Source: a virus (taxonomy: Duplodnaviria; Heunggongvirae; Uroviricota; Caudoviricetes). From it: a stretch of 10,260 nucleotides of DNA. Below the pieces are notes generated by a model. That model worked only from the letters and a program-made list of their open reading frames with translations. It was not told the DNA's origin and did not search any database. The stretch lies in IMG/VR virus record IMGVR_UViG_2667527849_000007. The stretch is one strand, 5' to 3'. Positions 1,670 through 10,260 of the stretch are shown one piece after another. A program made the translations under genes and the position numbers. Positions within the stretch are counted from its first letter, which is position 1. Each line of letters starts with the position of its first letter.

Positions 1670-2728
1670 GTGCGGGTATTACTTCGACCTGTTCTGGTAC
1701 CGGAACTCGGTCTGGTTATCGTTAAGCCAGGCCGTGAATCAATGTCAGCATTCCATAACGGCAGAATACTGGTGGAGCCGGAACCAAAAAGCATGCGTAA
1801 TCTGCCGTCCGGGGTCGTTCCTGCCGCTCGCCAGCCGCTGGTGGAAGACAAAACATTGCTGCCGTTTTTCAGTAACGCACGGGTGATTCGTGCTGCTGGT
1901 GGTGCTGGTGCATTGTCTGACTGGCTGTTGCGCCATATTAAATCCTGCCAGTGGCCACACGGCGATTATCATCACAGCGAAACCGTCATTCACCGTTATG
2001 GTACCGGCGCAATGGTGTTGTGCTGGCACTGCGACAACCAGCTGCGTGACCAGACATCCGAATCACTCGAGCAACTTGCTCATCAAAACCTGTCAGCATG
2101 GATGATTGACGTCATCGGTCACGCAATAAGCGGTACGCAGGAGCGTGAATTATCTCTGGCTGAATTATCCTGGTGGGCGGTCCGCAATCAGGTGGCGGAC
2201 GCGCTACCGGAAGCGGTATTACGTCGTTCGCTGGGGTTGCGTGCGGAAAAAATTCGCTCTGTGTACAGTGAAAGCGACATCATACCGGGAGAGCAGACAG
2301 CCACCAGCATACTGAAGCAGCGCACAAAAAATATTGCGTTACTGCCTCACGTCCACCAGCAACAGAACCCACCACAGGAAAAGACGGTGGTCAGCATTGC
2401 CGTTGATCCGGAGTCACCGGCTCAGTATCTCCAGCGCCAGAAATCACAACGGGAAGAGATGCCTGTATACACGCGCTGGGTAAAAACGCAGAAATGCATG
2501 ACGTGTGGCAATCAGGCAGATGATCCGCATCACATCATTGGTCATGGACTGGGAGGGATGGGAACAAAGGCTGATGATTTGTTTGTTATTCCGTTATGCC
2601 GTAAATGCCGTAACGAACTACATGCCGGAGTAAAAGATTTTGAAGAGAAACACGGCAGTCAGCTGTTGTTGCTGATTCGTTTTTTAATGCACGCGAGAAA
2701 TTCGGGTGTTCTGAAGTGGAAAGCATAA
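1670..2728 (+). CDS. DUF968-family phage protein (YdfU-like) with a C-terminal CxxC...HH...CxxC...H motif
   Basis: 352-aa ORF. C-terminus CMTCGNQADDPHHIIGHGLGG...CRKCRNELH resembles an HNH/zinc-ribbon signature. Gene order (this gene, rusA, Q) matches the ydfU-quuQ neighbourhood of Qin-type prophages as I recall it. Start uncertain: GTG 1670 sits only 4 nt after GGAGG; an in-frame ATG at 1742 is an alternative. Confidence 0.7.
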   Translation: MRVLLRPVLVPELGLVIVKPGRESMSAFHNGRILVEPEPKSMRNLPSGVVPAARQPLVEDKTLLPFFSNARVIRAAGGAGALSDWLLRHIKSCQWPHGDYHHSETVIHRYGTGAMVLCWHCDNQLRDQTSESLEQLAHQNLSAWMIDVIGHAISGTQERELSLAELSWWAVRNQVADALPEAVLRRSLGLRAEKIRSVYSESDIIPGEQTATSILKQRTKNIALLPHVHQQQNPPQEKTVVSIAVDPESPAQYLQRQKSQREEMPVYTRWVKTQKCMTCGNQADDPHHIIGHGLGGMGTKADDLFVIPLCRKCRNELHAGVKDFEEKHGSQLLLLIRFLMHARNSGVLKWKA

Positions 2729-3109
2729 ATGACCGAGCGCATAGAATTTGTTTTACCTTACCCGCCGACGGTGAACACTTACTGGCGTCGTCGTGGCAGC
2801 ACATATTTTGTATCAAAAGCCGGGGAGCGTTATCGCCGGGCAGTGGCGCTTATTGTTCGCCAGCAGCGGCTGAAATTAAGCCTGTCCGGAAGGTTGGCAA
2901 TAAAAATTATTGCAGAACCACCGGATAAGCGCCGCCGTGACCTGGACAATATTCTGAAAGCGCCGCTGGATGCGCTGACGCATGCGGGGTTGCTAATGGA
3001 CGATGAGCAGTTTGATGAAATCAATATCGTTCGTGCTCAGCCAGTATCTGGTGGACGTCTGGGGGTGAAGATTTATCCCATAATGCTTGAAGGGCAGGTC
3101 AAAAAATGA
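2729..3109 (+). CDS. rusA: RusA-family Holliday junction resolvase (crossover junction endodeoxyribonuclease)
   Basis: 126 aa. LPYPPTVNTYWRRRG N-terminus and acidic PDKRRRDLDN and LMDDEQ motifs fit the RusA family. ATG abuts the DUF968 stop; stop overlaps the Q start. Confidence 0.85.
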   Translation: MTERIEFVLPYPPTVNTYWRRRGSTYFVSKAGERYRRAVALIVRQQRLKLSLSGRLAIKIIAEPPDKRRRDLDNILKAPLDALTHAGLLMDDEQFDEINIVRAQPVSGGRLGVKIYPIMLEGQVKK

Positions 3110-3497
3110 AACTGGAAGATTTACCGAAATACTACTCCCCAAAATCCCCCGGCCTGACTGATGCATCGGCCTCAACGTCGAAAGATGCGCTGAGTATCAC
3201 TGATGTGATGGCCGCGCAGGGCATGACACAGAATCGGGCTGAGATGGGGGTTTCTGCGTTCCTTGGGAAAATGGGCATTAGTATGAATGACAGAGAGCGG
3301 GCAACAGAATTGCTGACAGAATATGCACTCAGTCGGTGTGATCGCGTGGCGGCGTTAAGAAAACTCCCGGCAGAAATAAAACCGGCAGTGATGCGTATTA
3401 TGGCTTCGTATGCGTTTGAAGATTATGCCCGTAGCGCGGCGAGCAAAAAACAGTGCCCCTGCTGTCACGGAAAAAAATTTATTGAAAGCGAGGTTTT
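3106..3497 (+). pseudogene. Q-like antiterminator, 5' fragment (codons 1-129) truncated by IS2
   Basis: First 129 codons give the same protein as the intact Q at 7002-7823. Sequence diverges after 3497 into IS2 antisense. The track ORF 3106..3870 is a Q/IS2-antisense chimera. Confidence 0.75.
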
Positions 3498-3498
3498 A

Positions 3499-3915
3499 AT
3501 CACAGCAGAACTCGAACCCGTCAGAGCACCATCGCTGATTGCTTTCTTTCACGGCCACTCTGCCTGTATGTGCCCGTTTCGATGGCGGTACAGCAGGTTT
3601 TCGCTCAAGCAACAGCGCATTCTGGCGCATGATCCGGTAAACACGTTTGGCATTGATCGCAGGCATACCATCAAGTTCTGCCTGTCTGCGAAGCAGCGCC
3701 CATACCCGACGATAACCATACGTGGGCAGCTCTCCGATAACATGGTGTATACGGAGAAGCACATCCGTATCATCAGTGTGACGACTGCGGCGGCCATCCA
3801 TCCAGTCATCGGTTCGTCTGAGAATGACGTGCAACTGCGCACGCGACACCCGGAGACAACGGCTGACTAAGCTTACTCCCCATCCCCGGGCAATAAGGGC
3901 GCGTGCGCTATCCAC
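3499..3915 (-). pseudogene. insD: IS2 InsD (transposase OrfB), N-terminal 139 codons only
   Basis: Minus-strand translation [41 protein letters not shown]...[11 protein letters not shown] matches the IS2 InsD N-terminus. Full InsD is about 300 aa; the reading frame ends at the IS2/Q junction. Confidence 0.8.
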
Positions 3916-4238
3916 TTTTTTGCCCGTCCATATTCAACGGCTTCTTTGAGGAGTTCATTTTCCATCGTTTTCTTGCCGAGCAGGCGCTGGAGTTCTTTAA
4001 TCTGCTTCATGGCGGCAGCAAGTTCAGAGGCAGGAACAACCTGTTCTCCGGCGGCGACAGCAGTAAGACTTCCTTCCTGGTATTGCTTACGCCAGAGAAA
4101 TAACTGGCTGGCTGCTACACCATGTTGCCGGGCAACGAGGGAGACCGTCATCCCCGGTTCAAAGCTCTGCTGAACAATTGCGATCTTTTCCTGTGTGGTA
4201 CGCCGTCTGCGTTTCTCCGGCCCTAAGACATCAATCAT
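3873..4238 (-). CDS. insC: IS2 InsC (transposase OrfA), 121 aa
   Basis: Minus-strand translation [56 protein letters not shown]... matches IS2 InsC from memory. The track ORF 3873..4283 carries a 15-codon upstream extension. Confidence 0.85.
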
Positions 4239-4464
4239 CTGTACTCCAATGACTAGTCTAAAAACTAGTATTAAGACTATCACTTATTTAAGTGATACTG
4301 GTTGTCTGGAGATTCAGGGGGCCAGTCTACGGACATTTTCTGCCTGTGGACCAGGAAAGTGCACGGGTGCTTTCCACTCCCATGAAGCCCGGCAATCCGC
4401 GCAGATACAGTAATAAACGAACTGACAGCAGTAAGATGGAGCGTTTCTTTTGAACAACCAGACA

Positions 4465-4707
4465 ATGACTTTTACCTCTGAACAATTGCGTAAACACGCG
4501 CAGGAAATGCTGCGTCATGCTGAACAACTCGAAAAAACGGGCATAACAAAAGACGCTATCCGTAAAGATATGGTACCCGCGCTTCGGGAACTGATGCAGG
4601 CGAAGCATCGCGCACAGAAAGCAGTAGATGAGCTGGTGGACTGTGTGGCAGAGCTGGAAACCAGAGTCGGAAAGTTTGAAAAACTGGTGCAGGAGGTGCT
4701 GCGCTGA
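4465..4707 (+). CDS. hypothetical small phage protein, 80 aa (85 aa if the TTG at 4450 is used)
   Basis: ORF track 4450..4707. Likely start is ATG 4465 (MTFTSEQLRKHAQEM...). N-terminus resembles the ORFs at 137-304 and 301-645. Stop overlaps the rusA' start (TGATG). Confidence 0.5.
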   Translation: MTFTSEQLRKHAQEMLRHAEQLEKTGITKDAIRKDMVPALRELMQAKHRAQKAVDELVDCVAELETRVGKFEKLVQEVLR

Positions 4708-5081
4708 TGCGCCATGAGTTTATTTTACCTTATCCGCCGACGGTGAATACTTACTGGCGACGTCGTGACAACACATATTTTGTATCAAAAGCCGGTGAGC
4801 GTTATCGCCGGGATGTGGCGCTTATTGTCCGTCAGCAGCGACTGAAATTAAGCCTGTCCGGAAGACTGGCGATAAAGATTATTGCAGAGCCACCGGATAA
4901 GCGCCGTCGTGACCTGGACAATATCCTGAAAGCACCACTGGATGCACTGACACATGCGGGAGTGTTAATGGACGATGAGCAGTTTGATGAAATCAATATC
5001 GTTCGTGCTCAGCCAGTATCTGGTGGACGTCTGGGGGTGAAGATTTACCCCATAATGCATGAAGAGCAGGTCAAAAAATGA
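4707..5081 (+). CDS. rusA: RusA-family Holliday junction resolvase, divergent second copy
   Basis: 124 aa, roughly 90% identical to the 2729-3109 copy, with a different N-terminus (MRHEFILPY vs MTERIEFVLPY) and scattered substitutions at both nucleotide and protein level. Confidence 0.8.
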   Translation: MRHEFILPYPPTVNTYWRRRDNTYFVSKAGERYRRDVALIVRQQRLKLSLSGRLAIKIIAEPPDKRRRDLDNILKAPLDALTHAGVLMDDEQFDEINIVRAQPVSGGRLGVKIYPIMHEEQVKK

Positions 5082-5823
5082 AACTGGAAGATTTACCGAA
5101 ATACTACTCCCCAAAATCCCCTTGCCTGACCGATGCATCGGCCTCAACGTCAAAAGATGCGCTGAGTATCACTGATGTGATGGCCGCGCAGGGCATGACA
5201 CAGAATCGGGCTGAGATGGGGTTTTCTGCGTTCCTGGGGAAAATGGGCATCAGTATGAATGACAGGGCGCGGGCAACAGAATTACTGGCAGATTATGCAC
5301 TCAGTCGGTGCGATCGTGTGGCGGCGTTGAGAAAACTTCCGGCAGAAATAAAACCGGTAGTGATGCGCATTATGGCTTCGTACGCTTTTGAGGATTATGC
5401 CCGCAGCGCAGCGAGTAAAAAGCAGTGCCCTTGTTGCTATGGGGAAAAATTTATTGAAAGCGTAGTTTTTACAAACAAGGTCCAGTATCCGGATGGTAAG
5501 CCGCCGGTATGGGCAAAGTGTACGAAAGGTGTGTATCCGTCTTACTGGGAAGAATGGAAAAAAGTCAGGGAGGTGGTAAAAGTTGCCTGTCCGGAGTGTG
5601 GCGGAAAGGGTGAGGTTTCCACCGCCTGTAAGGATTGCCGTGGGCGTGGTGTCGCCATTCATCGTGAAGAGTCGGTAAAACGTGGTATGCCTGTTATCAG
5701 AGACTGCCAGCGTTGTGGTGGTCGTGGCTATGAAAGACTACCATCAACGGAGGCATTTAATGCTATATGCGAGGTGACAAACCAGATAACACGCGCGTCA
5801 TGGGAAAAAACAGTTAAGAAATT
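5078..5823 (+). pseudogene. Q-like antiterminator, mosaic copy truncated at codon ~248 by fusion to the middle of a DUF968 gene
   Basis: The 5' half differs from the other Q copies (SPCLTD, ARATELLADYA, CYGEK); the 3' half from about 5481 is identical to copy 3. At about 5821-5825 the sequence switches to DUF968 sequence (matching 1929 onward), giving the track ORF 5078..6001 an out-of-frame 59-aa tail. The last ~25 Q codons are missing. Confidence 0.6.
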
Positions 5824-6624
5824 ATGCGCCATATTAAATCCTGCCAGTGGCCACACGGCGATTATCATCACAGCGAAACCGTCATTCACCGTTATGGTAC
5901 CGGCGCAATGGTGTTGTGCTGGCACTGCGACAACCAGCTGCGTGACCAGACATCCGAATCACTCGAGCAACTTGCTCATCAAAACCTGTCAGCATGGATG
6001 ATTGACGTCATCGGTCACGCAATAAGCGGTACGCAGGAGCGTGAATTATCTCTGGCTGAATTATCCTGGTGGGCGGTCCGCAATCAGGTGGCGGACGCGC
6101 TACCGGAAGCGGTATTACGTCGTTCGCTGGGGTTGCGTGCGGAAAAAATTCGCTCTGTGTACAGTGAAAGCGACATCATACCGGGAGAGCAGACAGCCAC
6201 CAGCATACTGAAGCAGCGCACAAAAAATATTGCGTTACTGCCTCACGTCCACCAGCAACAGAACCCACCACAGGAAAAGACGGTGGTCAGCATTGCCGTT
6301 GATCCGGAGTCACCGGCTCAGTATCTCCAGCGCCAGAAATCACAACGGGAAGAGATGCCTGTATACACGCGCTGGGTAAAAACGCAGAAATGCATGACGT
6401 GTGGCAATCAGGCAGATGATCCGCATCACATCATTGGTCATGGACTGGGAGGGATGGGAACAAAGGCTGATGATTTGTTTGTTATTCCGTTATGCCGTAA
6501 ATGCCGTAACGAACTACATGCCGGAGTAAAAGATTTTGAAGAGAAACACGGCAGTCAGCTGTTGTTGCTGATTCGTTTTTTAATGCACGCGAGAAATTCG
6601 GGTGTTCTGAAGTGGAAAGCATAA
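5824..6624 (+). pseudogene. DUF968 (YdfU-like) 3' fragment, C-terminal 266 codons with a junction-created ATG
   Basis: Protein identical to the C-terminal portion of the 1670-2728 product. The ATG at 5824 exists only because the junction reads ATTATGCGCC where the full copy reads CTGTTGCGCC. Retains the CxxC/HH motif region. Whether it is translated is unknown. Confidence 0.6.
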
Positions 6625-7393
6625 ATGACCGAGCGCATAGAATTTGTTTTACCTTACCCGCCGACGGTGAACACTTACTGGCGTCGTCGTGGCAGCACAT
6701 ATTTTGTATCAAAAGCCGGGGAGCGTTATCGCCGGGCAGTGGCGCTTATTGTTCGCCAGCAGCGGCTGAAATTAAGCCTGTCCGGAAGGTTGGCAATAAA
6801 AATTATTGCAGAACCACCGGATAAGCGCCGCCGTGACCTGGACAATATTCTGAAAGCGCCGCTGGATGCGCTGACGCATGCGGGGTTGCTAATGGACGAT
6901 GAGCAGTTTGATGAAATCAATATCGTTCGTGCTCAGCCAGTATCTGGTGGACGTCTGGGGGTGAAGATTTATCCCATAATGCTTGAAGGGCAGGTCAAAA
7001 AATGAAACTGGAAGATTTACCGAAATACTACTCCCCAAAATCCCCCGGCCTGACTGATGCATCGGCCTCAACGTCGAAAGATGCGCTGAGTATCACTGAT
7101 GTGATGGCCGCGCAGGGCATGACACAGAATCGGGCTGAGATGGGGGTTTCTGCGTTCCTTGGGAAAATGGGCATTAGTATGAATGACAGAGAGCGGGCAA
7201 CAGAATTGCTGACAGAATATGCACTCAGTCGGTGTGATCGCGTGGCGGCGTTAAGAAAACTCCCGGCAGAAATAAAACCGGCAGTGATGCGTATTATGGC
7301 TTCGTATGCGTTTGAAGATTATGCCCGTAGCGCGGCGAGCAAAAAACAGTGCCCCTGCTGTCACGGAAAAAAATTTATTGAAAGCGAGGTTTT
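5825..7393 (+). repeat. direct repeat copy B, partner of 1929-3497
   Basis: See copy A. Its left boundary is the Q'/DUF968 fusion junction; its right boundary is where copy A is interrupted by IS2. Confidence 0.8.
6625..7005 (+). CDS. rusA: RusA-family Holliday junction resolvase, third copy, identical in protein to 2729-3109
   Basis: Identical 126-aa translation to copy 1, and the antisense shadow ORFs are also identical, implying nucleotide identity. Confidence 0.85.
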   Translation: MTERIEFVLPYPPTVNTYWRRRGSTYFVSKAGERYRRAVALIVRQQRLKLSLSGRLAIKIIAEPPDKRRRDLDNILKAPLDALTHAGLLMDDEQFDEINIVRAQPVSGGRLGVKIYPIMLEGQVKK

Positions 7394-7823
7394 TACAAAC
7401 AAGATCCAGTATCCGGATGGTAAGCCGCCGGTATGGGCAAAGTGTACGAAAGGTGTGTATCCGTCTTACTGGGAAGAATGGAAAAAAGTCAGGGAGGTGG
7501 TAAAAGTTGCCTGTCCGGAGTGTGGCGGAAAGGGTGAGGTTTCCACCGCCTGTAAGGATTGCCGTGGGCGTGGTGTCGCCATTCATCGTGAAGAGTCGGT
7601 AAAACGTGGTATGCCTGTTATCAGAGACTGCCAGCGTTGTGGTGGTCGTGGCTATGAAAGACTACCATCAACGGAGGCATTTAATGCTATATGCGAGGTG
7701 ACAAACCAGATAACACGCGCGTCATGGGAAAAAACAGTTAAGAAATTTTATGATGCGCTGGTGACCCGGTTTGATATTGAAGAAGCATGGGCTGAGCGGC
7801 AGTTAAAAAAGGTAACTAGGTAA
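7002..7823 (+). CDS. Q-like late-gene antiterminator (QuuQ/YdfT-like), the only intact copy, 273 aa
   Basis: N-terminus MKLEDLPKYYSPKSP... Carries CPCCHGKK plus three CxxCxGxG zinc-finger-like repeats (CPECGGKG, CKDCRGRG, CQRCGGRG). Lies directly upstream of a pR'-like promoter and tR'-like terminator and downstream of rusA, as expected for lambdoid Q. Family assignment is from memory. Confidence 0.7.
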   Translation: MKLEDLPKYYSPKSPGLTDASASTSKDALSITDVMAAQGMTQNRAEMGVSAFLGKMGISMNDRERATELLTEYALSRCDRVAALRKLPAEIKPAVMRIMASYAFEDYARSAASKKQCPCCHGKKFIESEVFTNKIQYPDGKPPVWAKCTKGVYPSYWEEWKKVREVVKVACPECGGKGEVSTACKDCRGRGVAIHREESVKRGMPVIRDCQRCGGRGYERLPSTEAFNAICEVTNQITRASWEKTVKKFYDALVTRFDIEEAWAERQLKKVTR

Positions 7824-7828
7824 CAAGG

Positions 7829-7856
7829 TTGATTTTTCCGGAATCTGTGGTAAATT
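7829..7856 (+). promoter_or_regulatory. candidate late promoter pR' (and qut region) immediately after Q
   Basis: TTGATT (7829-7834), 16-bp spacer, extended -10 TGgTAAATT (7848-7856). TAAATT is the -10 I recall for lambda pR'. Begins 6 bp after the Q stop. Confidence 0.5.
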
Positions 7857-7905
7857 CGTCATAACGATGGGCGTTTTATGCCTGACGTTAGAAGAGTTTC
7901 TACAA

Positions 7906-7927
7906 CCCGCCGCCGAGCGGGTTTTTT
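7906..7927 (+). terminator. tR'-like intrinsic terminator in the late leader
   Basis: Hairpin CCCGC-CGCCGA-GCGGG followed by TTTTTT, about 50 nt downstream of the predicted -10. Expected to be read through only by Q-modified RNA polymerase. Confidence 0.55.
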
Positions 7928-8047
7928 ATGACTGAAATCGCGTCAGTACAGTAAACGCGCTGGTGGCGGTGAATACCTGTCTTTCAGCTTGCTGGCTTTT
8001 TCGACAAGAGTTATTGGTGTGTCACGTTAACCGGAAAAGGAAAAGAC

Positions 8048-8245
8048 ATGCTAAAACAGCAGGATATGACAGAAACCGCCAGAGTGGTGTTTAATGAATT
8101 AAGCGTTACCGAACCGGCGACAGTCGGGGAGATAGCGCAGAATACTTACCTTTCACGCGAACGCTGCCAGTTAATACTGACCCAGCTGGTTATGGCGGGT
8201 CTGGCAGACTATCAGTTCGGTTGTTACAGACGCCTTCCGCAGTGA
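8048..8245 (+). CDS. small putative helix-turn-helix protein, 65 aa
   Basis: ORF track 8048..8245. AAGGA RBS 8-9 nt upstream of the ATG. Segment ATVGEIAQNTYLSRERCQLILTQL has an HTH-like pattern. The stop lies inside a terminator hairpin. Confidence 0.5.
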   Translation: MLKQQDMTETARVVFNELSVTEPATVGEIAQNTYLSRERCQLILTQLVMAGLADYQFGCYRRLPQ

Positions 8246-8255
8246 AGGCTTTTTT
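8232..8255 (+). terminator. intrinsic terminator overlapping the stop of the small HTH ORF
   Basis: Perfect 6-bp stem GCCTTC / GAAGGC with loop CGCAGT, followed by TTTTTT (8250-8255). Confidence 0.5.
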
Positions 8256-8272
8256 ATTTGTGGTAAATGGGC

Positions 8273-8303
8273 GGCTGGTGGGTGTTAGGGGCACCCACCA
8301 GCC
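8273..8303 (+). promoter_or_regulatory. perfect 12-bp inverted repeat (GGCTGGTGGGTG - 7 nt - CACCCACCAGCC) in the methyltransferase leader
   Basis: Arms and spacer read directly from the sequence. No U-tract follows, so it is not a canonical terminator. Could be an RNA stability or processing element or a protein-binding site. Confidence 0.35.
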
Positions 8304-8395
8304 ATCTGCTCATGCGTTGGGTTCACAAGCAAACCTCAGGCCCACTGCTTTGCGCAAAAGCAGAATGAGCCTATCAGAGACAGGCTTAATGATCC

Positions 8396-9454
8396 ATGCT
8401 TAATACTGTAAAAATATCCAGTTGTGAGTTAATCAACGCCGACTGCCTGGAATTTATCCGGTCGTTACCCGAAAATTCTGTTGACCTGATAGTCACGGAC
8501 CCGCCGTACTTTAAAGTGAAGCCTGAGGGCTGGGATAACCAGTGGAAGGGCGACGATGATTACCTGAAGTGGCTGGACCAGTGTCTGGCGCAGTTCTGGC
8601 GGGTGCTGAAACCTGCCGGAAGTCTTTACCTGTTCTGTGGTCATCGCCTGGCATCTGATATCGAAATCATGATGCGTGAACGCTTCAGTGTGCTGAACCA
8701 TATTATCTGGGCGAAGCCGTCCGGACGCTGGAACGGATGCAACAAGGAAAGCCTGCGGGCGTATTTCCCCGCCACAGAGCGCATTCTGTTCGCGGAACAT
8801 TATCAGGGGCCGTATCGTCCGAAAGATGCCGGGTATGCGGCGAAGGGCAGTGCACTGAAACAGCATGTGATGGCCCCGCTGATTTCTTACTTTCGTGATG
8901 CGCGAGCTGCCCTGGGGATAACGGCAAAACAGATTGCAGATGCCACAGGAAAGAAAAACATGGTGTCGCACTGGTTCAGTGCCGGTCAGTGGCAGTTGCC
9001 GAATGAGAGCGATTATCTGAAATTACAGGCGCTGTTTGCCCGGGTGGCAGAAGAGAAGCATCGGCGTGGTGAACTGGAAAAGCTCCACCACCAGCTGGTG
9101 GATACGTATACCTCACTGAACCGGCAGTATGCGGAGCTGCTGAGTGAATATAAACATCTGCGGCGGTATTTTGGCGTGACGGTGCAGGTGCCGTATACCG
9201 ATGTGTGGACGCATAAACCGGTGCAGTTCTATCCCGGGAAACATCCGTGCGAAAAACCGGCAGAAATGCTGCAGCAGATAATCAGCGCTAGCAGTCGTCC
9301 GGGTGACCTGATTGCAGATTTTTTCATGGGGTTGGGTTCGACAGTGAAAGCGGCACTGGCGCTCGGGCGTCGTGCAATTGGCGTTGAGCTGGAGACTGAA
9401 CGTTTTGAGCAGACGGTTCGGGAAGTACAGGATTTAGTCAGCCAGAACGGATGA
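8396..9454 (+). CDS. DNA methyltransferase, beta-class amino-methyltransferase (probable N6-adenine; DPPY motif), orphan
   Basis: 352 aa. Motif IV DPPY near the N-terminus (LIVTDPPYF) and an FxGxG AdoMet motif near the C-terminus (DFFMGLGST), the circular permutation typical of beta-class N6A/N4C methyltransferases. No restriction endonuclease gene adjacent. No obvious SD before ATG 8396. Confidence 0.85.
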   Translation: MLNTVKISSCELINADCLEFIRSLPENSVDLIVTDPPYFKVKPEGWDNQWKGDDDYLKWLDQCLAQFWRVLKPAGSLYLFCGHRLASDIEIMMRERFSVLNHIIWAKPSGRWNGCNKESLRAYFPATERILFAEHYQGPYRPKDAGYAAKGSALKQHVMAPLISYFRDARAALGITAKQIADATGKKNMVSHWFSAGQWQLPNESDYLKLQALFARVAEEKHRRGELEKLHHQLVDTYTSLNRQYAELLSEYKHLRRYFGVTVQVPYTDVWTHKPVQFYPGKHPCEKPAEMLQQIISASSRPGDLIADFFMGLGSTVKAALALGRRAIGVELETERFEQTVREVQDLVSQNG

Positions 9455-9494
9455 TATTGAAGAATTAATTACGCGTCGTTATTATGCGGCTCCC

Positions 9495-9570
9495 GGCCCT
9501 TTAGCTCAGTGGTGAGAGCGAGCGACTCATAATCGCCAGGTCGCTGGTTCAAATCCAGCAAGGGCCACCA
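9495..9570 (+). tRNA. ileZ: tRNA with CAT anticodon, most likely tRNA-Ile2 (lysidine-modified, reads AUA); tRNA-Met not excluded
   Basis: Hand-folded cloverleaf: acceptor GGCCCTT / AAGGGCC, D-stem GCTC/GAGC, anticodon loop CTCATAA, T-loop TTCAAAT, encoded CCA. Closely resembles E. coli ileX-type tRNA. Symbol by analogy with the ileZ-argN-argO cluster of Stx phages, from memory. Confidence 0.8.
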
Positions 9571-9577
9571 TCACATA

Positions 9578-9654
9578 CCGCCATTAGCTCATCAGGAAAG
9601 AGCGCCAGCCTTCGAAGCTGGCTGCGCGGGGTTCAAGTCCCCGATGGCGGTCCA
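9578..9654 (+). tRNA. argN: tRNA-Arg, anticodon TCG (reads CGA)
   Basis: Acceptor CCGCCAT / ATGGCGG, anticodon stem CCAGC/GCTGG, loop CTTCGAA, T-loop TTCAAGT, encoded CCA. Anticodon read by hand; symbol by analogy only. Confidence 0.75.
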
Positions 9655-9667
9655 TTATCTGCATCAT

Positions 9668-9744
9668 GCGTTGTTAGCTCAGCCGGACAGAGCAATTGCC
9701 TTCTAAGCAATCGGTCACTGGTTCGAATCCAGTACAACGCGCCA
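9668..9744 (+). tRNA. argO: tRNA-Arg, anticodon TCT (reads AGA/AGG)
   Basis: Acceptor GCGTTGT / ACAACGC, anticodon stem ATTGC/GCAAT, loop CTTCTAA, T-loop TTCGAAT, encoded CCA. Symbol by analogy only. Confidence 0.8.
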
Positions 9745-9758
9745 CACTTATTTTCCCT

Positions 9759-9784
9759 GGCTCGCTTTTGCGGGCCTTTTTTTT
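9759..9784 (+). terminator. intrinsic terminator after the tRNA cluster
   Basis: Hairpin GGCTCGC-TTTT-GCGGGCC (one G-U pair) followed by eight T, starting 15 nt after the last tRNA. Confidence 0.6.
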
Positions 9785-10260
9785 AAATGTCTCACAATTC
9801 AGACGGTTGACAGTTGTCTGTTTTGCGGGGAGTTTGTTAAAAGAAACTGGCATGGTGAATCCCCCTGTGCGGAGGGGCAATCAGCGAGTAGGTATATGGG
9901 ATAATCGCGGATTCAGGTGCTGGTACTGAATTCACCGGGAGGCACCCGGCATCATGCAATGGCACATAGCGCCACTCTCCAGCCCTCTCCGGAGGGGCTT
10001 TTCTGTGCCGGATACATCACAGTTTCTGGAACCTTAGGTACTACAGTATCAGTCAGGGTGCTATATTTTCAGATGTGATGAAAGCCTGTCAGCAGGCAGG
10101 GCGTATCGGAAATGACCCAGTAGAGAAAACGTTGACTCAGATACCGGTGCTGAGTTACCGGGAAACCGGCATCACATGACCGCTATCCTGAGGTGTACTG
10201 GCAATAGCGGACACTACCATTTGTTCTTTTTTTAAGCAGCCATCTGATGATATTTTTCCC

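Follow-up and report, generated by a model that had tools for sequence, protein, structure and literature searches.

A copy of the known ileZ-argN-argO tRNA cassette in a toxin-less lambdoid prophage

The window analyzed here is a stretch of viral DNA of 10,260 nucleotides (nt) (Caudoviricetes; IMG/VR record IMGVR_UViG_2667527849_000007) that carries three adjacent tRNA genes with the anticodons CAU, UCG, and UCU. Our data favor the reading, with a probability of about 0.72, that these genes are a copy of the ileZ-argN-argO cassette in a lambdoid prophage that lacks Shiga toxin (Stx) genes and is disrupted by insertion sequences (IS), and that the cassette supplies decoders of rare codons by way of its own promoter and the phage late transcript. 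The cluster is real and had been interpreted correctly, but it is ordinary and matters little as a discovery. Our additions to the known cassette are as follows: (i) the assignment of its first gene to tRNA-Ile2; (ii) a conserved promoter-like site; (iii) its placement relative to the late promoter pR' and the stx genes; (iv) a codon signal that favors CGG over CGA; and (v) the variety of anticodons found in its second slot.

ARAGORN was applied to the entire window and called three tRNA genes, all on the plus strand, and no further tRNA. The same genes were scored by the Rfam model RF00005, for which the gathering score is 29 bits:

9495-9570, + strand: tRNA1, tRNA-Ile2 type (ileZ), anticodon CAU; ARAGORN; RF00005, 72.5 bits, E=1e-14
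9578-9654, + strand: tRNA2, tRNA-Arg(UCG) (argN); ARAGORN; RF00005, 58.0 bits, E=1e-10
9668-9744, + strand: tRNA3, tRNA-Arg(UCU) (argO); ARAGORN; RF00005, 70.1 bits, E=4.8e-14

These E-values place all three matches far above chance. The genes are separated by gaps of 7 nt (tRNA1-tRNA2) and 13 nt (tRNA2-tRNA3). When the cloverleaf was imposed, standard pairs were found at 20 of 21 stem positions in tRNA1 and at 21 of 21 in both tRNA2 and tRNA3. The sole nonstandard pair, A27.C43 of tRNA1, recurs in all 121 collected copies of this gene, indicative of a conserved feature rather than of decay. The nucleotides engaged in tertiary contacts (U8, A14, G18-G19, U33, and a T-loop of the form TTC(A/G)A.. 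with A58) are present in all three genes, tRNA2 showing an unusual U15/G48 combination at position 15-48, and each gene encodes its 3' CCA (...GGGCC-A-CCA in tRNA1, ...GGCGG-T-CCA in tRNA2, and ...AACGC-G-CCA in tRNA3). All three are thus confirmed as genuine tRNA genes. A preliminary description of this DNA, made from its letters, had proposed a three-tRNA cluster with the anticodons CAT, TCG, and TCT, encoded CCA ends, and a terminator at positions 9495 to 9784; ARAGORN bore out the anticodons, the CCA ends and a hairpin with eight T residues are present, and the span coincides exactly with the stretch between the first base of tRNA1 and the last T of the run.

The tRNA genes are flanked on either side by a candidate transcription signal:

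9457-9485, + strand: sigma-70 promoter-like site, TTGAAG, 17 nt, TATTAT (promoter scan)
9759-9784, + strand: intrinsic-terminator-like hairpin followed by T8, the 3' boundary of the cassette (terminator scan)

The promoter-like site ends 9 nt before tRNA1, the gap being filled by the G+C-rich 9-nt stretch GCGGCTCCC. We found TATTAT upstream of all 120 ileZ-type copies compared, with a gap of 9 nt to the tRNA in 104 copies and of 10 nt in 16, and 119 of them also have a TTG-type -35 hexamer 17 nt further upstream. These 120 copies possess 26 distinct upstream 60-mers that fall into several visibly different types, among which are the 3' end of the methylase gene and a tR' terminator fused directly to the promoter-like site. 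Among 40 distinct Ile-Arg-Arg cassettes the -10 hexamer displayed 0.000 differences per site, as opposed to 0.28 to 0.30 in the flanking spacer and discriminator. On comparative grounds, the invariance of the -10 hexamer across differing upstream contexts argues well for a putative promoter dedicated to the cassette. At the other end, the hairpin at 9759-9776 comprises 7 pairs (6 of them G-C) and a 4-nt loop, has a predicted energy of -13.8 kcal/mol, and is followed by TTTTTTTT up to position 9784. Both motifs of a moron-type layout (i.e., a promoter directly upstream and a terminator directly downstream) are therefore present at the sequence level, and the cassette is, as predicted from these motifs, a compact unit of ~330 bp (9457-9784) made up of promoter-like site, three tRNA genes, and terminator-like hairpin.

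The cluster had been likened beforehand to the Q-proximal tRNA cluster of Stx-type lambdoid phages, and this likeness held up: positions 9400 to 9900 match 306 phage records, mostly of Stx2-converting phages, several of which annotate ileZ, argN, and argO downstream of the antiterminator gene Q. More specifically, the cluster is 93 to 98% identical to records that list ileZ, argN, and argO in this sequence behind Q and a DNA methylase gene; the three genes are named in AP012536.1, AP012537.1, and AP012534.1, and in Stx2 phages they lie directly upstream of stx2A. ARAGORN called the same anticodons (CAU, UCG, and UCU) in loci L001, L002, and L003. The order in Stx2a_1447 is Q, two open reading frames (ORFs) on the opposite strand, an ORF of 65 amino acids (aa), DNA methylase, ileZ, argN, argO, stx2A, and stx2B, and the complete E. 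coli prophages closest to the window have DUF968 and RusA ahead of Q, then the 65-aa ORF, the methylase gene, and the tRNA trio, followed by genes for a SASA-family esterase, holin, and lysozyme; the window follows the latter order from position 5824 on. The names ileZ, argN, and argO reportedly come from the 933W genome of Plunkett et al. in 1999. A description of an Stx2 phage places the same three tRNAs beside stx2a and cites codon compensation (PMC7946995), and the passage of PMC3636060 that cites Schmidt et al. (1997) mentions an ileX-type tRNA gene near the Stx2 operon. Full-text literature searches on ileZ/argN/argO and on prophage-encoded tRNAs returned nothing relevant, and the papers on the stx-flanking region did not mention the tRNAs; the known status is drawn from database annotation together with PMC7946995 and PMC3636060. 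Judged by these matches, the cluster of the window is the already known and named ileZ-argN-argO cassette of Stx-type lambdoid phages.

The alignment with Stx2 phages further defines the place of the cassette. Window positions 7904-9785 formed one BLAST block with 4513-6388 of the Stx2a phage L002 (93.7% identical), extending from tR' through the methylase and the tRNAs to the terminator. Similarity to this phage starts at 7904, breaks off at 9785, and returns at 9788, where the phage counterpart is the sequence immediately behind stx2B; this indicates that stx2AB sits exactly between the cassette terminator and the STnc100-family small RNA (sRNA) gene in the Stx2a phage. On this alignment the window represents an allele of the stx locus devoid of toxin genes, in which STnc100 follows the terminator directly. 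Phages of the 933W type share with the window the order of anticodons, a similar spacing, the promoter-like site, the terminator, and the position downstream of Q; they differ in carrying stx2AB after the terminator, and the Q protein of Stx2a_1447 (113 aa) is of a different type from that of the window (273 aa, with PF03589). Other lambdoid phages (SfI, Sf6, ST64T, and phage 21) carry tRNA-Asn or tRNA-Thr genes in the same slot downstream of Q, although these are different tRNA species with different sequences (PMC3636060). The role proposed for tRNAs downstream of Q in lambdoid and P22-like phages is that of decoders for codons overused by the phage (PMC3636060).

To decide which amino acids and codons are served, we compared each gene with the E. 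coli K-12 set. tRNA1 is identical to ileY at 70 of 76 positions and to ileX at 68 of 76, as opposed to 54 of 77 for the elongator tRNA-Met genes metT/metU; its anticodon loop equals that of ileX/ileY, and the pairs C4-G69 and C5-G68 are kept, whereas A27.C43 replaces the G27.U43 of ileX/ileY. These two C-G pairs are said to be determinants of TilS (Ikeuchi et al. in 2005). ARAGORN labels the gene tRNA-Met, and an identical gene is tRNA-Ile in RefSeq. Because the match to ileY/ileX far exceeds that to metT/metU, and because of the anticodon loop, the two TilS-type pairs, and the RefSeq label, tRNA1 is on sequence grounds a tRNA-Ile2 of the ileX/ileY type and not a tRNA-Met; it is predicted to decode AUA once C34 has been modified to lysidine. 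tRNA3 shares with K-12 argU the 7-nt anticodon loop, A20, C35, U36, and G73, yet the two agree at only 56 of 77 positions and the majority of stem pairs are exchanged; this tRNA would read AGA and, more weakly, AGG. The ileX/ileY-like and argU-like genes of the window are thus separate prophage-borne genes and not chromosomal copies.

In E. coli, the nucleotides that identify a tRNA to arginyl-tRNA synthetase (ArgRS) are A20, C35, and G36 or U36. A20 is present in the D-loop of both Arg tRNAs (ATCAGGAAA and AGCCGGACA; anticodons UCG and UCU), and tRNA2 combines A20, C35, and G36 with an unusual body that has C1-G72, U73, and U15/G48. The tRNA-Arg genes of MG1655 comprise four with ACG and one each with CCG, TCT, and CCT, the TCG column being empty (PMC3711424, Table 1), so the preliminary description had rightly stated that K-12 has no tRNA-Arg with a UCG anticodon. 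Its wider statement, that E. coli does not normally encode such a tRNA, stands for K-12 but not for the species, given that an argN-like sequence occurs in 2,030 of 5,426 complete E. coli genomes (37%; median 2 and maximum 8 places per genome). The block from methylase to tRNAs was covered to at least 80% in 1,249 genomes, including the E. coli type strain, and the exact acceptor and D-arm sequences of argN were found only in E. coli and Shigella flexneri, in a search of one genome per species in which diverged relatives would escape an exact match. Likewise, the decoding capacity ascribed to the middle tRNA is new as regards the anticodon, whereas two of the three anticodon types (CAU-Ile2 of ileX/ileY and UCU-Arg of argU) already exist in K-12, and UCG adds no newly readable codon because the ICG tRNA reads CGA and the CCG tRNA reads CGG. 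The I34.A pairing makes CGA hard to translate in E. coli (PMC3711424); the UCG tRNA would read CGA without this poor I.A wobble pair, and CGG as well.

We then determined codon use, per 1,000 codons, in the genes of the window, in the late genes of a related prophage, and in stx2AB, with 40 annotated K-12 genes as the reference:

ATA: K-12 2.8; window 14.3; late genes 5.9; stx2AB 36.9
AGA: K-12 1.1; window 9.2; late genes 5.0; stx2AB 14.8
AGG: K-12 0.7; window 4.1; late genes 3.7; stx2AB 4.9
CGG: K-12 3.9; window 14.3; late genes 15.4; stx2AB 7.4
CGA: K-12 3.2; window 3.6; late genes 5.9; stx2AB 4.9

Enrichment of ATA, AGA, AGG, and CGG was mostly highly significant in the window and in both L008 gene sets, and stx2AB showed clear enrichment for ATA and AGA only. 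CGA reached p=0.014 at best, and in the late genes only. CGG makes up 19 to 22% of Arg codons in the window and the late genes versus 9.9% in K-12. The codon supply of the cassette thus fits AUA, AGA/AGG, and CGG, with no special demand for CGA; of the enrichment anticipated for AUA, CGA, and AGA in the preliminary description, AUA and AGA were found and CGA was not. Since CGG is enriched and CGA is not, the likelier beneficiary of the UCG tRNA is CGG, or else the gain is a wobble-free reading of CGA.

The extent to which the cassette is conserved was assessed by searching IMG/VR with the tRNA2 D-arm, which yielded 120 loci; these were pooled with the other collected loci and typed with ARAGORN. 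Seventy-three loci were of the type Ile(CAU)-Arg(UCG)-Arg(UCU) and 42 of the type Ile(CAU)-Lys(UUU)-Thr(UGU)-Gly(UCC), the few remaining ones being partial or without a call. The mean pairwise differences per site among the 40 distinct Ile-Arg-Arg cassettes were as follows:

tRNA1: 0.005
tRNA3: 0.014
tRNA2: 0.043
Spacer between tRNA2 and tRNA3: 0.113
3' spacer: 0.077
Upstream flank: 0.23-0.35

This pattern argues for strong constraint on tRNA1 and tRNA3 and for weaker constraint on tRNA2. Substitutions that keep stems paired were also observed: across 18 variants of the tRNA2 scaffold 96% of cells were paired, compared with 53% or less for slid controls, and both sides of 4 pairs had changed; one argO variant displayed a two-sided compensatory change in the T-stem; some other argO alleles have a disrupted T-arm. 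In phage vB_EcoS-611R1 (L132, 1496-1564) ileZ has decayed through internal deletions, and argN and argO are intact. The annotation of this copy as "tRNA-Pseudo-TAT" raised the idea of a UAU tRNA that reads AUA independently of lysidine; we rejected it, the gene being an internally deleted ileZ copy that ARAGORN does not call.

The second cassette type is found, for example, in E. coli PF9285 (L007, 2924-3233), between Q and the holin gene. It shares with the window an identical first tRNA, the genomic slot, and the promoter-like site (TTGCAA, 17 nt, TATTAT), and it differs in bearing tRNA-Lys in slot two, in having Thr and Gly tRNAs next where the window has Arg(UCU), and in lacking a methylase gene upstream. 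Its tRNA-Lys is built on the argN scaffold, being 83% identical to argN with an identical D-arm, U73, CCA, and an acceptor stem that differs by one compensatory pair. In addition, one locus carries the argN scaffold with a UCU anticodon and A73. These sister cassettes suggest anticodon switching on a phage tRNA chassis. More specifically, slot two may hold an anticodon-swappable chassis (C1-G72, U73, an invariant D-arm with A20, and U15/G48) that bears UCG (Arg), UUU (Lys), and once UCU (Arg, with A73) in cassettes whose promoter-tRNA-terminator layout is otherwise homologous, a proposal that we put forward tentatively and consider doubtful as it stands.

The cassette lies in a late region whose other features are as follows:

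7002-7823, + strand: antiterminator gene Q, 273 aa (Pfam PF03589 Antiterm, E=1.6e-53)
7829-7871, + strand: pR'-like late promoter, TTGATT (7829-7834), 16 nt, TAAATT (7851-7856), 6 nt, AACGATGGG (7863-7871); read from the sequence
7904-7930, + strand: tR'-like intrinsic terminator, 7 pairs, AACCCGCCGCCGAGCGGGTT then TTTTAT (terminator scan)
8048-8245, + strand: 65-aa ORF, the first ORF of the late unit (ORF list)
8396-9454, + strand: DNA methyltransferase gene, 352 aa, directly upstream of the cassette (Pfam PF01555 N6_N4_Mtase, E=7.9e-42)
9821-10010, + strand: STnc100-family sRNA gene, the downstream neighbor, outside the cassette (Rfam RF02076, 123.6 bits, E=2e-27)

The homologous Q ORF is labeled "antitermination protein" in E. 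coli TUM10008 and O121. The pR'-like site was found by eye and by alignment with lambda, in which the region after Q has the same geometry as the window (GGTAAATT, 6 nt, and AACGATGGG); in lambda, the AACGATGGG element is the sigma-dependent pause/qut element. An automated promoter scan of 7700-8500 called no promoter, the site matching the consensus at only 8 of 12 positions. We infer that the site directly after the Q stop codon is a lambda-like pR' with a promoter-proximal pause element. Together with tR', it is predicted to give a terminated transcript of ~65 to 70 nt in the absence of Q, which may resemble the 6S RNA of lambda and the StxS sRNA that has been reported in Stx phages. The cassette begins ~1.6 kb downstream of the pR'-like start and thus lies, by position, within the Q-dependent late unit.

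Between tR' and the cassette, the 65-aa ORF gave no Pfam match and is a "hypothetical protein" at the equivalent place in L002, L003, and L008; it ends in a stop codon that overlaps a terminator-like hairpin (8232-8249). The upstream neighbor of ileZ in Stx2 phages is annotated "DNA methylase." Phage PhiR49_2 (L001, 5777-6055) has only the 3' part of the methylase gene, with similarity starting at window position 9158 and an annotated ORF of 279 bp, and at some IMG/VR loci a sequence identical to the tR' hairpin of the window directly adjoins the tRNA promoter-like site. The 65-aa ORF and the methylase gene together thus give the impression of an optional insertion that separates tR' from the cassette. 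On the downstream side, the STnc100 gene contains a terminator-like hairpin at 9981-9999, and a member of the family (153.8 bits) follows stx2B in the Stx2a phage L002. A second STnc100 copy, 70% identical, lies ~270 bp further on in E. coli O121, and a minus-strand pseudo-ORF over the STnc100 region in RefSeq is probably spurious. STnc100 is related to the prophage sRNA PasD (2026 preprint, bioRxiv 10.64898/2026.05.13.724894). We considered STnc100 (~190 nt, terminator-ended) as a pR' leader akin to lambda 6S RNA, which would place the tRNAs upstream of the late promoter, and rejected this candidate because pR', pause element, and tR' directly follow Q and because STnc100 follows stx2B in Stx2 phages with unrelated Q genes.

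The conserved promoter-like site directly upstream of tRNA1 and the position downstream of a lambda-like pR' lead us to propose two routes of transcription. In lysogens, a transcript would start at the cassette's own promoter and stop at the cassette terminator, which would keep it out of the downstream cargo and lysis genes. Upon induction, the late transcript from pR' (~7863) would include the cassette, with Q-modified RNA polymerase reading through tR', the 65-aa ORF, the methylase, the tRNAs, and the terminator. A discrete transcript and processing from the late transcript had been offered as alternatives in the preliminary description; the sequence supports both, and the two are not mutually exclusive. 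As extrapolated from established tRNA processing in E. coli, the precursor would be cleaved by RNase P and RNase E, after which exonucleases would shorten it as far as the encoded CCA. TilS would then convert C34 of tRNA1 to lysidine, yielding an AUA reader charged by IleRS, and ArgRS would charge both Arg tRNAs, of which UCU would read AGA and, more weakly, AGG, and UCG would read CGA and CGG without the I.A wobble. The net effect would be a larger supply of tRNAs for codons that E. coli core genes seldom use, that are 2 to 14 times commoner in the genes and cargo of lambdoid phages, and that reach their extreme in stx2AB.

Several observations weigh against this account. As for codon demand, the share of CGA among Arg codons (5 to 8% in the phage sets) is close to the 6.5% of K-12 genome-wide (counts from PMC3711424), and loci of the Ile-Arg-Arg and Ile-Lys-Thr-Gly types are indistinguishable in codon usage, which means that the content of a cassette does not track the codon usage of its carrier phage; the comparison of the two types is uninformative as to which hypothesis holds. 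As for charging, a purine at discriminator position 73 is a minor determinant for ArgRS, and the known tRNA-Arg species of E. coli have A73 or G73. tRNA3 conforms (G73), whereas tRNA2 has U73 (...ATGGCGG-T-CCA), which is kept in 17 of 18 variants of the scaffold; this lowers our confidence in efficient charging of argN, although charging is still possible. As for constraint, tRNA2 is 3 to 8 times more variable than tRNA1 and tRNA3, the commonest argN alleles in IMG/VR have the mismatches A6.A67 and A52.C62 and G58 in place of A58, and ~12 of 74 argN copies end in ...GGCGGTTC instead of ...GGCGGTCCA, such that CCA is not encoded. This allele pattern fits weak constraint on argN; the allele in the window is fully canonical, with all stems paired and A58. 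Finally, the prophage is disrupted by IS elements, and a benefit during lytic growth may be moot in this host.

An alternative is that the tRNAs are neutral passengers or decaying relics, intact but of no measurable benefit and kept only by their place in a module that is frequently exchanged between Q and the lysis genes. Decayed copies do exist, as in vB_EcoS-611R1, where ileZ is a pseudo-tRNA not called by ARAGORN; many argN alleles have stem mismatches, G58, or a broken CCA, some argO T-arms are disrupted, and the prophage of the window is itself IS-interrupted. We nonetheless regard this explanation as unlikely. tRNA1 and tRNA3 are near invariant (0.005 and 0.014), with adjacent spacers and flanks 10 to 60 times more variable, the -10 hexamer does not vary, compensatory changes preserve stem pairing, and argN-like sequence is present in the 2,030 genomes noted above, often in several places in each. 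Such a pattern of conservation is not expected of neutral sequence.

A role of another kind would be that of counter-defense, in which the phage tRNAs, instead of compensating for codon usage, serve as spares during infection or induction and replace host tRNAs cut by the anticodon nucleases of abortive-infection systems or, for tRNA-Arg, by colicin D. tRNA-Lys(UUU) is a classic target of anticodon nucleases (PrrC and PARIS), and colicin D cleaves tRNA-Arg isoacceptors. It is in keeping with such a role that the sister cassette carries a tRNA-Lys(UUU) on the argN scaffold, AAA being no rare codon in E. coli, and that the UCG tRNA-Arg has no counterpart in K-12. However, the 7-nt anticodon loops of tRNA1 and tRNA3 equal those of ileX/ileY and argU, so that neither tRNA would escape a nuclease that recognizes the loop; the anticodons fit the codons enriched in phage genes; and no nuclease is known to be directed against tRNA-Ile2. 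Counter-defense is accordingly a quite improbable explanation of the cassette as a whole.

It is highly improbable that the tRNAs act as RNA-processing punctuation of the long late transcript (RNase P/RNase E entry between the methylase mRNA and the cargo) or as recombination or integration targets, with decoding incidental, for although the site of the cassette is precisely that of a module junction (in Stx2 phages stx2AB, and in the window the STnc100 side, comes within 2 to 3 bp of the terminator end), the methylase module is present or absent directly upstream, and tRNA genes are common integration sites in general (see also bioRxiv 10.64898/2026.05.13.724894), such roles need no conserved anticodons, encoded CCA, synthetase identity nucleotides, or dedicated promoter, and the junctions fall at the promoter and terminator, outside the tRNAs, unlike att sites inside a tRNA.

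The supply of rare-codon decoders by a mobile cassette hence remains our preferred reading, and the rest of the window shows in what kind of prophage this copy resides. A direct repeat of 1,569 bp (1929-3497 and 5825-7393) is 100% identical, the copies lying 3,896 bp apart, and a third copy between them is 91 to 94% identical (4716-5823 versus 6640-7747). A DUF968-RusA-Q module is thereby present about three times, with RusA ORFs at 2729-3109, 4707-5081, and 6625-7005 and Q-like ORFs at 3106-3870, 5078-6001, and 7002-7823, only the last of which is followed by pR'. The triplicated module could be due to recombination between prophages or to an assembly artifact; in none of the complete E. coli genomes does a single place account for more than 85% of the window. 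An IS fragment occupies 3496-4283 on the minus strand, and its transposase helix-turn-helix ORFs (PF01527 and PF13276) begin at the very position at which the first copy of Q ceases to match the third. The last 74 bases (10187-10260) match, at 100% identity, the sequence next to an IS600-family transposase pseudogene in a prophage of E. coli O121; an IS thus interrupts the late region at 10187, ~180 bp after STnc100. At 767-1092 lies a hok/sok type I toxin-antitoxin locus, with the sok RNA model at 767-942 (112.4 bits) and a Hok/Gef ORF within 880-1092 (PF01848, E=3e-23), the equivalent of which is hokD in related prophages.

For annotation, the consequence is that the CAU gene of this cassette should be given as tRNA-Ile2, where ARAGORN and several phage records have tRNA-Met. 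For the organization of the phages, the cassette terminator at 9759-9784 marks the exact site of stx2AB in Stx2 phages. If the chassis proposal were true, decoding in lambdoid prophages and in the 37% of E. coli genomes that bear an argN-like sequence would be retuned by replacement of an anticodon and not by capture of host tRNAs, and if all versions of the scaffold are correctly charged, they would represent a natural and recent switch of tRNA amino-acid identity inside a mobile phage module. The conserved promoter-like site suggests that the tRNAs are made in lysogens. In that case many E. coli strains would possess extra decoders for AUA, AGA, and CGR codons, and these, if indeed made, could raise the expression of acquired genes rich in rare codons, including virulence genes.

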